The notes beneath the pieces were generated by a model. That model had not been told where the DNA came from, ran no database searches, and was given only the letters and a program-made list of their open reading frames with translations. A program made the translations under genes and the position numbers. From Promethearchaeota archaeon Loki_b32 (GTDB lineage: Archaea > Asgardarchaeota > Lokiarchaeia > Sigyniarchaeales > SOKP01), in assembly GCA_005223125.1 (NCBI GenBank), contig NJBH01000010.1, forward strand, positions 1 through 64,000: a stretch of 64,000 bases of DNA, in the 5' to 3' direction. Positions 18,602-50,365 of this stretch are shown piece by piece; within the stretch, counting starts at the first letter, position 1; each line of letters opens with the position of its first letter.

Positions 18602-21600
18602 TCAATTCAATTTCCAATGTTTTCTACCCATCTTAACTTCAACTTGCACTTGTCCTTTACGCTCTAATTCTTTTAATTTCAATTGAAGGTATCGAGCATC
18701 CATCATATCTTTAATTCTTAATTTAAAAATAAGGTGTTTTATGGTTTGCCATTCATTTGATAATACTGAAATTATTCTATCAGTGGTAATGAGAGGTAGT
18801 TTTGTTTGAGTTGATTTTCGTATTGAAGGTGCTTTTTGAGGTGCAGTTAGGATGGGTGCTTTCTTCACAGAAGTTATTAAAGGTTTAGGTGTTTCTGTAA
18901 TAGTTTCTAACACCTTGGGTTTAGGCTTCTCTGGCTTTTTTATAACTTTCTCCGTAGTAAATGAGTCTAGAATCTTTTCAATAATCTCATTTTTTCTTGC
19001 TTTTGAGAGTGTTTCAATATCTTGCTCCTTACAATAATCTTTGAGTTCTTTGATTGTCCAGTTAAGTAAAGTTTTTTTAGAAATCATTGCTTTTTTTAGT
19101 TTCGGTTTTTGCATGGTTATTACTTTTTCAGGAGGGATCGTTTCTTTAAGAGTCTCTACTTCCTTTTCATCTTCTTTTACGATTTCTGGTTTTTTTACCT
19201 CAGGTATTTCGGGTTTCAAATCCATTGCAATAACAGGAACTGGTTTTTTCCCAATTGCTCCCTTCATTAAATCTTCAATTTCTTTAATGTCTACTCTTGC
19301 TTTGTATTTACTCTCCCCTCGAGATGCTATATTATATACACTTTTAGCAAATAAAGGGATATATTTCTCTATTAAACTAGCTCTTTTTTCACTTTTATAT
19401 ATGCTAGCTCTTCTATTAATATATATTCGTAATCTTCTTCCTATTGCCTCAAGACAAACTTTAATTTCTTTAATTAATTCTTCATCATCAGCTAAAGCAT
19501 TTTTTGATTGTGATTTAAACATTAAATGCACAAAAGGACCCGAAACATTAACTAACAGCTTTATAGGTCCTCGTGGTAAGCCATTATCATAAGTTTCAAG
19601 ATTATAATTCTTCCAATTTACAGATTGAACTGCTTTTGTTATAGCACAATCAGCATTATCTCTTAATTTCGGAGTTCTATTTACAAATCGAGATAAAACA
19701 TCCCTTGATCGTTTTGGAACTTCAATATTTCTGGAATAAGCCAATACAGCCTCAACTACGTATGCTAATCCTTTTCCGCTAGTAGGCGTTCTTGTTTCTG
19801 CTGCTACAAAATCATCATCTTTAGTATATGTTTCAAGGAAATAGTCAAAAACATCGTGGTAGCTATCTATAGAATCAATATCTGAAAAGGTAAGAACATC
19901 ATCAATCGTTTGTTTTATTTGTCGGAATTCCAAAGTTTCATCGATGATATCAATAGTTCCCAATATTTCTGAATTTAAATCAATAATCTCTCCTGTATCT
20001 ATCTTAATATTAGCGATTGCATCCTTTAGATTCTCAGTTTCTTCCTCCAACAATGCGTTCTTTTTTTCATCGAATAATAATTCCGTTGTTTTACGAATAG
20101 TATCGATTGGTGCATCAAAATCATCATTATTATCTGAAATTCGTAATCCAATTTCTTTAATTAAAGTATTCTCCAAAATTGATTCTCCTACGGGAATTGC
20201 CGTGTCTGTTGGAGGGGCCATATATTTCATTGATTTGAAAGCAAGGAATAGAGAATTGAATTGCTCTTTTGTTAAGTCAATAGGTTTTACTTTAGATATT
20301 TGAACTTTTGTAACTAAATCTTCAAAATCTGTTCGTTTCTTAAATTTTTTTAATTCAATTAATCCATCTTTAGCATTTCGAAATAAATCATTTAAATTTC
20401 CCTTAGTTTTGTCTTTTTCTTTTCTAATACTCTCAATATTTTTCAAATATTTCCTGATTTCTCTTTCTAAAGCTTTAATTTCTTTTTGAGTTACAGTTTT
20501 TTCAATTTGATTATTTAATTTCTTAATCTCTTTATTTGAGTTTTCAATATCCTTTATGAATTTGCTATAGTCTGATATTAAATCCCCATATTTTTCCTTA
20601 AGTTCTTCTGATTCAACTTGATATATTATTAATTTATCTCGTGGTTTAGTTGAGCGCCCATATATCCTTTTTTCATGTCTAATGAAATAAATTTGATCTT
20701 CTTTTTTCTTTATTGAATTTACAAAACCATCTTTTAGAATTAGGAAATTATAGTTATCTTGTAAGTCTCTTTCGGCAATATCAACAATTTCTTTAGCTAT
20801 TTTTGAACTCATTCTGACAAAATTTTCTTGTAAAAACGCGGATATAGATTTATTTTCTGATTTTGTAATCAAATCTTGTAAATCTCCTATATTAACCGAA
20901 GAAGGATGAGGTTTGGCATATTTAGGTTCGGATGGAAAAGAAGTAGCCAATCTACGGTAAATTTTTTCCTTACCATATGGATCAATATATATAATTGTAA
21001 AATGAGGATTCATAAATGCAGTTTCTTCAATATATTTCTCAGTATATCCTCTAATATATCGTACATTTAAATAATTCAACTTGATATAGGTCCCATGTAA
21101 AAAGGGGCTATCAATTTTAGTCGGATGGATTAAATACTTTTTTTCATTTTTTGAAGTAGTGAAAAATTCAGAACAAGTGGCATAAACATTATCAATCGTT
21201 TTTGAAACCGTAATAATCGGTTTGCCTGTGGTATTTTGAGCGTCGCTAAAAGCACTTGGGGCTCCAAAGCCTTGACTACCTCTTGTTTGTTTTAGTTCCA
21301 TAGATTTTGATGACGCCAGATATTTTCCAAATTTTCTTAAATCAATTTTTGACATTCCGGTACCATTATCAAATATTTCAAAAGTGTAACTCATAATATT
21401 TTTCTGACTAATTTCAGAAGTTAAAAATGAAGGGGCTTCAAATTCTCTAATACGAACAATCACTATTGGTTCTACATCAATTATAAATTCTACAGGTTTA
21501 ATTATCTCATTCATGTCATCAATTATTCTTCTCACTTCTTCCTCAACTTCTAGTTCTTCCTTATCGGTTATTTCCCCAGACTCTTCTTCTTTTACTTCTA

Positions 21601-34636: not shown

Positions 34637-34738
34637 GGGCCTGTAGATCAGTGGAAGATCGCTTGATTTTATTAAGCAGGACGCTTAATTCCAAGATTCG
34701 CATTCAAGAGGTCACGGGTTCAATTCCCGTCAGGTCCA
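34637..34738 (+). tRNA. tRNA-Ala(CGC) with 30-nt intron (34668-34697) at position 32/33
   Basis: Acceptor GGGCCTG/CAGGTCC with G3:U70, discriminator A, D stem GATC/GATC, T arm ACGGG-TTCAATT-CCCGT; intron removal gives CTTGA-TTCGCAT-TCAAG; no encoded CCA. Confidence 0.93.
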
Positions 34739-49507: not shown

Positions 49508-49753
49508 ATGTCTAAAGAAGAAACTCAAGAGGATTTAAAAAATCTTTTAGGTTATATGGGAATCGAAATACTAGTAGCAATCGATAATGGAGCAAAAACT
49601 TATGAAACAATTAAATTATTCTCTGGATTACCAATTTCATGTATAAACGGGAGAGTACCCGTCTTACTTGATTTAGGCCTTATTAAAAAGAATAATAATG
49701 AATATTTTTTAACAGATAAAGGAATTCTTTTTAGAAAAAGATTAGACGAATAG
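49508..49753 (+). CDS. Small winged-helix protein
   Basis: 81 aa; LLDLGLIKK...YFLTDKG wing motif. Confidence 0.75.
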   Translation: MSKEETQEDLKNLLGYMGIEILVAIDNGAKTYETIKLFSGLPISCINGRVPVLLDLGLIKKNNNEYFLTDKGILFRKRLDE

Positions 49754-49767
49754 CTTTTAAAAAGGGA

Positions 49768-49842
49768 TGACATCAGTTTGGGGCGACAGTGTCATTGCTA
49801 CCGAGCAAGTAGCTAACTTTGTCATAAGTTCATCATTTGTCA
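49768..49842 (-). ncRNA. Box C/D sRNA (predicted 23S G2251-equivalent guide)
   Basis: Minus strand TGACA-A-ATGATGA (C box, 49830-49836) ... ATGACA (C'-like) CTGTCGCCCCAAA-CTGA (D box, 49773-49776)-TGTCA; terminal stem TGACA/TGTCA; GC-enriched island followed by a T-tract. Confidence 0.8.
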
Positions 49843-49849
49843 AATGATG

Positions 49850-50365
49850 CTAATTATCATTACTATTTAATTTTTGATTTTTAGTGGCTTTTTTATAATA
49901 TTTTCTCATATAATATCCTGGTCGTTTTAATCCGCCGCTCTCAGCAATGAGTCTCTCTAACCCACCTTCTTTTAATATAATATTTCTGTAAGTGTTATAA
50001 TCATTATTACTAATTTCATTCCTTCTTAATAGATAGTTTAAAAGATTTATTGCATCCTCCTTTTTTGTGCATCTCCTTATAAAATCAATCACATCTGGAT
50101 TATATAATTCATTCGGATATAATTTATTGGATTTCTGAGATTTTTCTTTATAATTCTTCTCAATTTCATAATCAACGGAATCAATTTTTATTGATTTCTT
50201 CTTTTCAAACATTTCTTTTGTCAAATGTGGGAAACGCTCATCTAATTCTTCCCTATTATACGATAACGTTAGTCCTTCATTGTCCTCAACTTTAATTTTA
50301 TTTTTAGGTTTTCTTTTTTTTTCTTCATCTCCCATGGATTTAATAACTCCTATAAGATGATTCAT
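49850..50365 (-). CDS. DUF2095-like archaeal protein
   Basis: PDVIDFIRRC...YLLRRNEIS...KRPGYY pattern; real start may be the downstream ATG (MGDEE). Confidence 0.75.
   Translation of the reverse strand: MNHLIGVIKSMGDEEKKRKPKNKIKVEDNEGLTLSYNREELDERFPHLTKEMFEKKKSIKIDSVDYEIEKNYKEKSQKSNKLYPNELYNPDVIDFIRRCTKKEDAINLLNYLLRRNEISNNDYNTYRNIILKEGGLERLIAESGGLKRPGYYMRKYYKKATKNQKLNSNDN

Follow-up and report, generated by a model that had tools for sequence, protein, structure and literature searches.

A conserved box C/D sRNA predicted to guide methylation of the 23S rRNA P-loop in an order of Asgard archaea

Here, we provide evidence suggesting that Promethearchaeota archaeon Loki_b32 carries a small RNA gene of the box C/D class whose 3′ guide is directed at the P-loop of its own 23S rRNA. 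The candidate, recognised by reading the sequence, is 75 nt long and lies on the minus strand of contig NJBH01000010.1 (49842..49768; coordinates given without a contig name are those of the window, i.e. the whole stretch of 64,000 nucleotides that was analysed). Comparison of related genomes confirms it as a real conserved feature, and this judgement is based on conservation together with covariation, not on the motif or the guide match alone. Its sequence makes it almost certainly a box C/D sRNA. The whole explanation, in which such an RNA guides methylation at the P-loop and carries in addition a guide for helix 89, we regard as probable. An earlier note on this DNA had predicted a box C/D sRNA targeting the P-loop equivalent of G2251, and conservation, covariation and pairing with the native 23S rRNA support that prediction.

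Read 5′ to 3′, the RNA is UGACA-A-AUGAUGA-ACUUAUGACAAA-GUUA-GCUAC-UUGCUCG-GUAGC-A-AUGACAC-UGUCGCCCCAAA-CUGA-UGUCA, and its parts and neighbours are the following.

49768..49842, minus strand: whole candidate box C/D sRNA, 75 nt (covariance model R1 match, E 1e-18)
49838..49842, minus strand: 5′ arm of the terminal stem, UGACA, pairing with 49768-49772
49837, minus strand: K-turn bulge base L1, preceding the C box
49830..49836, minus strand: C box AUGAUGA, matching RUGAUGA
49818..49829, minus strand: D′ guide ACUUAUGACAAA, 12 nt, candidate target U2460 of helix 89
49814..49817, minus strand: degenerate D′ box GUUA, NNGA in most other lineages
49797..49813, minus strand: internal hairpin GCUAC-UUGCUCG-GUAGC between D′ and C′, with a covarying stem
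49789..49795, minus strand: C′ box AUGACAC, AUGAUGU or AUGAUUC in relatives
49777..49788, minus strand: D guide UGUCGCCCCAAA, 12 nt, predicted to target the 23S P-loop and to set its position 5 against the G2251 equivalent
49773..49776, minus strand: D box CUGA, invariant in all copies read
49768..49772, minus strand: 3′ arm of the terminal stem, UGUCA, pairing with 49838-49842
49831..49849, minus strand: palindrome CAUCAUUU-GAC-AAAUGAUG, which overlaps both the terminal stem and the C box
49850..50365, minus strand: DUF2095 gene (Pfam PF09868, E 2e-13), upstream of the sRNA and its likely co-transcription partner
49508..49753, plus strand: convergent winged-helix gene (Pfam PF14947), downstream of the sRNA

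The C and D boxes are perfect, as is the 5-bp terminal stem, and all of them lie where the earlier note had placed them. The terminal K-turn reads in register as UGACA stem / 3-nt bulge AAU / GA ... CUGA / UGUCA, and both guide spacers, from C to D′ and from C′ to D, measure 12 nt, the norm for box C/D sRNAs being about 10-12 nt. With AUGACAC as C′ and GUUA as D′, this copy can form just one of the two internal G.A pairs.

These motifs are short, and their chance frequency was assessed over the 4.13-Mb genome (29.9% G+C; assembly 95.5% complete). When the whole genome was scanned for C and D boxes in register with a stem of 5 bp or more, 3 matches were returned, as many as from the non-complementary control (3). 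Likewise, about one third of shuffled D guides reach an equally good rRNA or tRNA site; because shuffled guides match as well, complementarity alone is not used as evidence here. At gathering thresholds, the sole Rfam match across the window was a tRNA gene of 102 nt (34637-34738, plus strand, 60 bits), a length which implies an intron. We found no tRNA target for the guides, a weak check given that only 21 tRNAs were detected in this intron-rich genome.

The element stands out by its conservation. Across 23 other species of the genus, identity over the 101 bases around it is 90-96%, whereas the flanking sequence diverges, and ten further species carry a version 75-80% identical whose terminal stem is wholly different yet paired (GAGAAGAAA/UUUUUUCUC). 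A covariance model (R1) built from the genus-level copies detected the sRNA in 118 of the 151 genomes of the order, exactly one copy in each, with 112/131 genomes positive in its own family and 5/14 in the sister family. In 41 representatives of the order, the paired fraction of stem cells was 85%, compared with 55% in shuffles, and every one of the 14 stem pairs showed changes on both sides. The alignment behind these values was fitted to the model, a procedure favourable to the structure, and the counts are drawn from related genomes. Sliding the structure by 1-3 columns gave scores far below that of the true register. Double compensatory changes were found at all 9 modelled pairs of the terminal stem, which is replaced wholesale among relatives with its pairing kept (GAGAAGAAA/UUUUUUCUC, UGCAU/AUGCA, GGGC/GCCC).

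The boxes are equally constrained, and their conservation across the order answers a point that the earlier note had raised as a check. The C and D boxes are invariant in 33 of 33 copies of the genus, and across the 41 representatives the sole variation of the C box is a changed final base in a single genus, g19 (AUGAUGU). In other lineages the D′ box is mostly NNGA (AAGA, UAGA, CUGA, CAGA or CGGA) and in most relatives the C′ box is AUGAUNN, with its UGA kept in all lineages read but one (GAGGAAC, two g22 genomes) and a 3-nt bulge between the hairpin and C′. The stem of the internal hairpin covaries (ACUAU/AUAGU, GCUGC/GCAGC, GUUAU/AUAAC, GUUAA/UUAAC). In the sister family only 2-3 bp separate D′ from C′, which corresponds to the compact K-loop form. 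The internal half had been described as degenerate; this holds for the GUUA of the present copy, but most relatives have a D′ box of the form NNGA. Similarly, the comparison with hairpin-bearing eukaryotic snoRNAs, rather than archaeal double guides, is correct only in part: the RNA is a double guide throughout the family, and its second guide tracks helix 89.

Two further observations are worth recording. The hairpin loop keeps a GCUC core family-wide (49802-49808, minus strand; loci L004-L113), as UGCUC in most genera and CGCUC, AGCUC or UACUC in a few. The guide model does not explain this core, which might serve for contact with a protein or for additional pairing; a search for its pairing partners in 23S rRNA returned only chance-level 6-mers. 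The other concerns one genome of the same genus (G022, locus L107), in which the boxes, the stems and the first guide are kept and the second guide reads UGUCACUAUAAU, not UGUCGCCCCAAU; it is either decayed or retargeted, and part of this sequence reads N.

How does the D guide relate to the rRNA of its own cell? The genome has one native 23S gene (contig C48, 3464 nt), in which the P-loop reads GCUGGGGCGGCU, or GGCUGGGGCGGCUC in a wider reading. Guide positions 3-11 pair with its UGGGGCGGC through 9 bp, 8 Watson-Crick and one G:U, and this duplex is the best D-guide site in the available rRNA of the organism. A pairing of about 9-10 bp had been expected: the nine pairs are present in the native 23S, and the tenth (U with A) is unavailable because the rRNA has U at that place. 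By alignment to E. coli K-12 rrlH, whose positions U2249-G2250-G2251-G2252-G2253-C2254 were read directly for the numbering, the D+5 rule falls on G2251, nucleotide 2495 of the native 23S, exactly as proposed earlier.

A comparison across genomes leads to the same column. When six genomes from two families were compared over their aligned 23S and 16S genes, each genome being scored with its own guide, the P-loop column was the top shared target with a summed score of 101, the next 23S column reaching 74 and the best 16S column 78. Furthermore, the guide core GUCGCCCCA is invariant across five Asgard families and corresponds to positions 3-11, i.e. exactly the paired stretch, with position 12 varying (U, C or A) among these families. 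Of 400 Asgard genomes, 125 contain the sequence GTCGCCCCANNCTGA; the count for the reversed control is about 5. Outside the core, guide and target change together: the 23S of the sister family reads GGUGGGGCGCCAG, with G instead of C on the 5′ side of the loop, and the guides of that family carry C at position 2. In some other lineages with the GCU flank of the present genome, the guide has either G at position 2, opposite C, or AGC in its 5′ part, matching the GCU after the loop; the AGC, found in three genomes, extends the pairing into the 3′ flank of the P-loop. Positions 10-12 (UGU) are conserved in the own family, though they add little to the P-loop duplex, and in one genus the sequence CCCCAAAA would shift the register of the guide by one. 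Altogether, the pairing and its conservation make it likely that the sRNA guides Gm formation at the G2251 equivalent of its own 23S rRNA.

Other sequences met in this part of the study were set aside. A second 23S site near the 3′ end (UUUCGGGCGACC) has a mismatch beside position 5, is variable or missing in relatives, and was rejected. In one genus of another Asgard family (loci L183, L184, L187 and L188), UGUCGCCCCAGCCUGA is conserved in 12 of 17 genomes, with no recognisable C or C′ box upstream of it. The assembly also holds a second 23S-like gene of 4029 nt (C68:17319-21347, locus L002) on a contig of 33.5% G+C; it shares almost no sequence with the native 23S, the only blastn match being 112 nt long at 73%, and its P-loop region is of the bacterial type (AGUGGGGCACU ... 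CCUCCUAAAAAGUAGCGGAGG). This contig is probably a contaminant, possibly with rRNA insertions in the gene, and the locus was left out as foreign.

Could the 3′ guide of a genuine C/D sRNA act mainly on 16S rRNA? The site would be ACC(A/G)GGGG(A/C)GACAG in h33/h34, with its second G at about E. coli G988, and the P-loop match would then be a by-product of GGGGCG. In the sister family the site (GGGGCGACA) is fully complementary to the guide and, in one genome of that family (G044), the 16S duplex has 9 Watson-Crick pairs plus a G:U, which is better than its P-loop duplex. Pairing with the final ...GACA of the site would also explain the UGU conserved at guide positions 10-12, and an Ignicoccus sRNA (PMC4644070 supplement) contains UGUCGCCCCC, complementary to GGGGGCGACA. 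However, in the own family all of the 16 16S genes that cover the site read GGGGAGACA, which brings a G/A mismatch into the middle of the duplex, and the guide still keeps its G. Moreover, position 12 of the guide is C or A in other Asgard families, and the 3′-flank variants (AG, AGU, AC+N) suit the flank of the P-loop and not the ACC flank. For the sister family, the 16S site may represent an additional target; as the main target in the own family it is unlikely, and we regard this reading of the sRNA as improbable. The 16S comparison uses other members of the family, the gene being mostly unassembled in the present genome and ten chosen relatives, as in most genomes of the genus. Here the 16S gene is split between contig C61 (113655-114219) and contig C48 (148700-149096) with its middle (about positions 570-1100) missing, which is why the Rfam search gives no 16S for this organism.

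The P-loop thus remaining our preferred target of the 3′ guide, the second issue is the 5′ guide. Its core, UGACAA, is conserved throughout the own and sister families. Against the 5′ strand of helix 89 in the native 23S (GUUGUCACGAGU), the D′ guide forms 6 bp, an A.C mismatch and 4 bp, which places its position 5 against nucleotide 2706, the U2460 equivalent. Again, guide and target co-change, across five Asgard families: UUGUCA occurs with UGACAA and UCGUCG with CGACGA, and the target triplets GAG, AGG and GGG (2464-2466) face CUU, CCU and CUC in the guide. Position 5 is opposite U2460 in 10 of 11 genomes. In several genera of the own family, guide position 8 is G and not A; provided that helix 89 in these genera has the sequence read for the family, as many as 11 pairs could form without interruption. 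Several genera have 3-4 extra bases between the D′ guide and the GA adjoining the hairpin. The guide may be weak or inactive in the present genome; its activity is uncertain because of the GUUA D′ box, the central A.C mismatch and, in several genera, the extra spacing, and we put the chances of its acting here on U2460 at about even. Two candidate pairings of this region were rejected. A site on contig C24 complementary to the D′ guide core lies inside an apparent protein-coding frame and was taken as a chance match, and a helix in which GACA of one guide would join UGUC of the other, predicted in the naked fold, was dropped as lineages changing one side of it left the other unchanged.

The proteins needed for such a particle are encoded in the genome, where the fibrillarin (272 bits) and Nop5 (218 bits) genes are adjacent on contig C46. 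We found no RlmB in the assembly, which is 95.5% complete: the only SpoU methylase is of the TrmJ type and scores 48 bits against an RlmB cut-off of 160. As this sole SpoU protein falls so far below the cut-off, no protein route to Gm2251 was found. In the mechanism that we propose, the sRNA is probably transcribed with the DUF2095 gene or just behind it, and the transcript would be trimmed to about 75 nt. L7Ae would bind the terminal K-turn and an internal K-turn made of C′, D′ and the hairpin, after which Nop5 and fibrillarin would join. The 3′ guide UGUCGCCCCAAA is predicted to pair with the P-loop of the nascent 23S rRNA, so that the second G of UGGGGCG (G2251; nt 2495) comes to lie at D+5 and would be methylated by fibrillarin at its 2′-OH. 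The 5′ guide ACUUAUGACAAA could in the same way pair with the 5′ strand of helix 89 and bring the U2460 equivalent (nt 2706) to D′+5. Transcription, assembly of the particle and both methyl groups are inferred.

The genomic neighbourhood is itself conserved. The sRNA begins 8 nt past the stop codon of the DUF2095 ORF, as expected from the claim that it lies immediately downstream of this gene. The order DUF2095 / sRNA / convergent winged-helix gene is retained in nearly all genera of the own family, so that the DUF2095 orthologues, in the comparison that had been suggested, have the sRNA behind them on the same strand. The winged-helix neighbour is found in both families of the order. Of the sister-family copies, five were read for their neighbours, and none of them has a DUF2095 gene at a distance of 1.2 kb or less.

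The palindrome had been thought capable of masking the C box in the precursor. It is present (49849..49831), and it forms in the minimum-free-energy fold of the naked precursor and dominates this fold; its conservation does not extend beyond the closest relatives, and it is retained only in the closest clade of the genus. Because it is confined to that clade, a general role of the palindrome in C-box masking is unsupported by the sequences compared.

These features of the locus bear on a second alternative, namely a conserved K-turn RNA without guide function, either a chaperone of rRNA folding or an L7Ae-binding 3′ element controlling the DUF2095 or winged-helix mRNAs. Such an RNA would fit the abutment on the DUF2095 stop codon within a conserved neighbourhood, the degenerate D′ box of this clade, the GCUC core that the guide model leaves unexplained and the ability of the palindrome to sequester the C box in the naked fold. 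However, both spacers are conserved in sequence and in their canonical length of 12 nt, each holding its position 5 at a constant rRNA nucleotide through the joint changes of guide and target, the DUF2095 gene is absent from the vicinity of the five sister-family copies, and the guide equals validated eukaryotic methylation guides. We therefore consider a non-guide function a poor candidate. As for chance, with short A/U-rich motifs that merely happen to lie together in a spacer of 30% G+C, such as a terminator region between convergent genes, the strict motif scan in which the genome equals the control and a guide match not significant alone would be compatible with it, but it is refuted by the 90-96% identity across the genus between diverging flanks, by detection across the order and beyond and by compensatory changes at every stem pair, leaving it virtually no probability.

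A box C/D sRNA directed at the P-loop, as favoured here, is a known kind of RNA in a new lineage, and its finding reveals no new mechanism. What it adds is an entire Asgard order carrying a dedicated and very stable predicted guide for G2251, in a setting where RlmB was not found in the genome studied; this fills the archaeal side of the Gm2251 story in the lineage closest to eukaryotes. It leads to a prediction for cultured Lokiarchaeia, a Gm at the P-loop and a Um in helix 89, and the compact K-loop, hairpin K-turn and swapped-guide forms offer a natural series for the study of guide RNA evolution. Our literature search, which was incomplete and is no proof of absence, found no description of Asgard C/D sRNAs. 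In the present genome, the only other match of the strict scan is a second canonical compact candidate of 65 nt (contig C64, minus strand, about 18946-19010 in plus-strand coordinates), with the layout UAGCC-U-AUGAUGA-12 nt-AUGA-loop-AUGAUUA-12 nt-CUGA-GGCUA; neither of its guides has a convincing rRNA target.

Protein-only SpoU enzymes, RlmB in bacteria and Mrm1/Pet56 in mitochondria, act as stand-alone Gm2251 methyltransferases, with the same nucleotide and chemistry as proposed here. In E. coli, Gm2251 is made by RlmB (PMC11121408, PMC11542601), and in yeast the equivalent Gm2619 is guided by snR67 (PMC11121408), so that the background given in the earlier note was correct. A review table equates Gm2251 with Gm1950 of Haloarcula (fibrillarin and an sRNA), Gm2619 of yeast and Gm4196 of human (PMC11542601), and RNA-guided methylation at the G2251 equivalent had already been predicted in three thermophilic archaea (PMC4644070). 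RNA-guided Gm2251 is thus known in eukaryotes and predicted in archaea.

Among archaeal RNAs, the closest in architecture are the double guides of thermophiles (Pyrococcus, Sulfolobus, Methanopyrus, Pyrobaculum; PMC4644070, PMC6009581, PMC7994747), which share with the present sRNA the C/D′/C′/D order (the internal pair being degenerate in this copy), the 12-nt spacers, the N+5 rule, the predicted L7Ae/Nop5/fibrillarin machinery and the placement at the 3′ end of a protein gene. The differences lie in the host, here a mesophile-like Asgard genome of 30% G+C with very few canonical C/D sRNAs (2 by strict scan), and in the internal motif: where the thermophile sRNAs usually have a K-loop of a few nt, the RNA described here has a 17-nt hairpin with the GCUC loop core, which would make a true internal K-turn. 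The Methanopyrus guide, which contains GCAGCCCCAGC (PMC4644070), differs from ours in its 5′ part.

The eukaryotic P-loop snoRNAs snR67 of yeast, U31b of plants and TBR7 of trypanosomes (Rfam RF01177, RF01285 and RF00295), together with human SNORD31, resemble the present RNA in their guide. Their target nucleotide is the same (PMC11121408, PMC11542601), and their consensus guide, (U)UGUCGCCCCA(A/G), is that found here, including the G:U at position 10. In a permissive Rfam scan, the consensus guides read UUGUCGCCCCAAg then CGGA for snR67, UUGUCGCCCCAGU for U31b and UGUcGCCCCAGU then CUGA for TBR7, so that UGUCGCCCCAA of our D guide is identical to them at equal box spacing; 3 nt separate CCCC from the D or D′ box in all of them, as here, which selects the second G. 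A D′-C′ stem is likewise found in many snoRNAs. By the models themselves there is no family membership, the scores falling far below the gathering thresholds (snR67 12.9 vs 55, U31b 13.4 vs 37, TBR7 21.4 vs 45). In addition, snR67 and U31b carry the P-loop guide in the 5′ half, before D′, whereas ours is in the 3′ half, before D, and the second target of snR67 is Um2724 whereas that of the present RNA is U2460 of helix 89. The eukaryotic arrangement also exists within the Asgard archaea, where two more distant families (f7 and f20) have the P-loop guide in the 5′ half and the helix 89 guide after it. The permuted order, C box, P-loop guide, CUGA ... C′, helix 89 guide and D, is read in loci L154 (G273), L155 (G060) and L156 (G059).

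Does this similarity reflect common descent? The identity of the guide with those of eukaryotic snoRNAs is largely forced by the invariant target. The features that are shared without being forced, i.e. the wobble at position 10, the A/G at unpaired position 2, the distance to the box, the D′-C′ stem and the permuted order in two families, give a hint that our sRNA and the eukaryotic P-loop guides (snR67, SNORD31/U31, TBR7) descend from one guide gene of the Asgard ancestor of eukaryotes, a tentative idea that we consider less likely than not. If it is true, this RNA would be among the few individual snoRNA lineages traceable across the boundary between archaea and eukaryotes, and two nucleotides of the peptidyl-transferase centre would be served by a fixed guide pair whose order was permuted during Asgard evolution.
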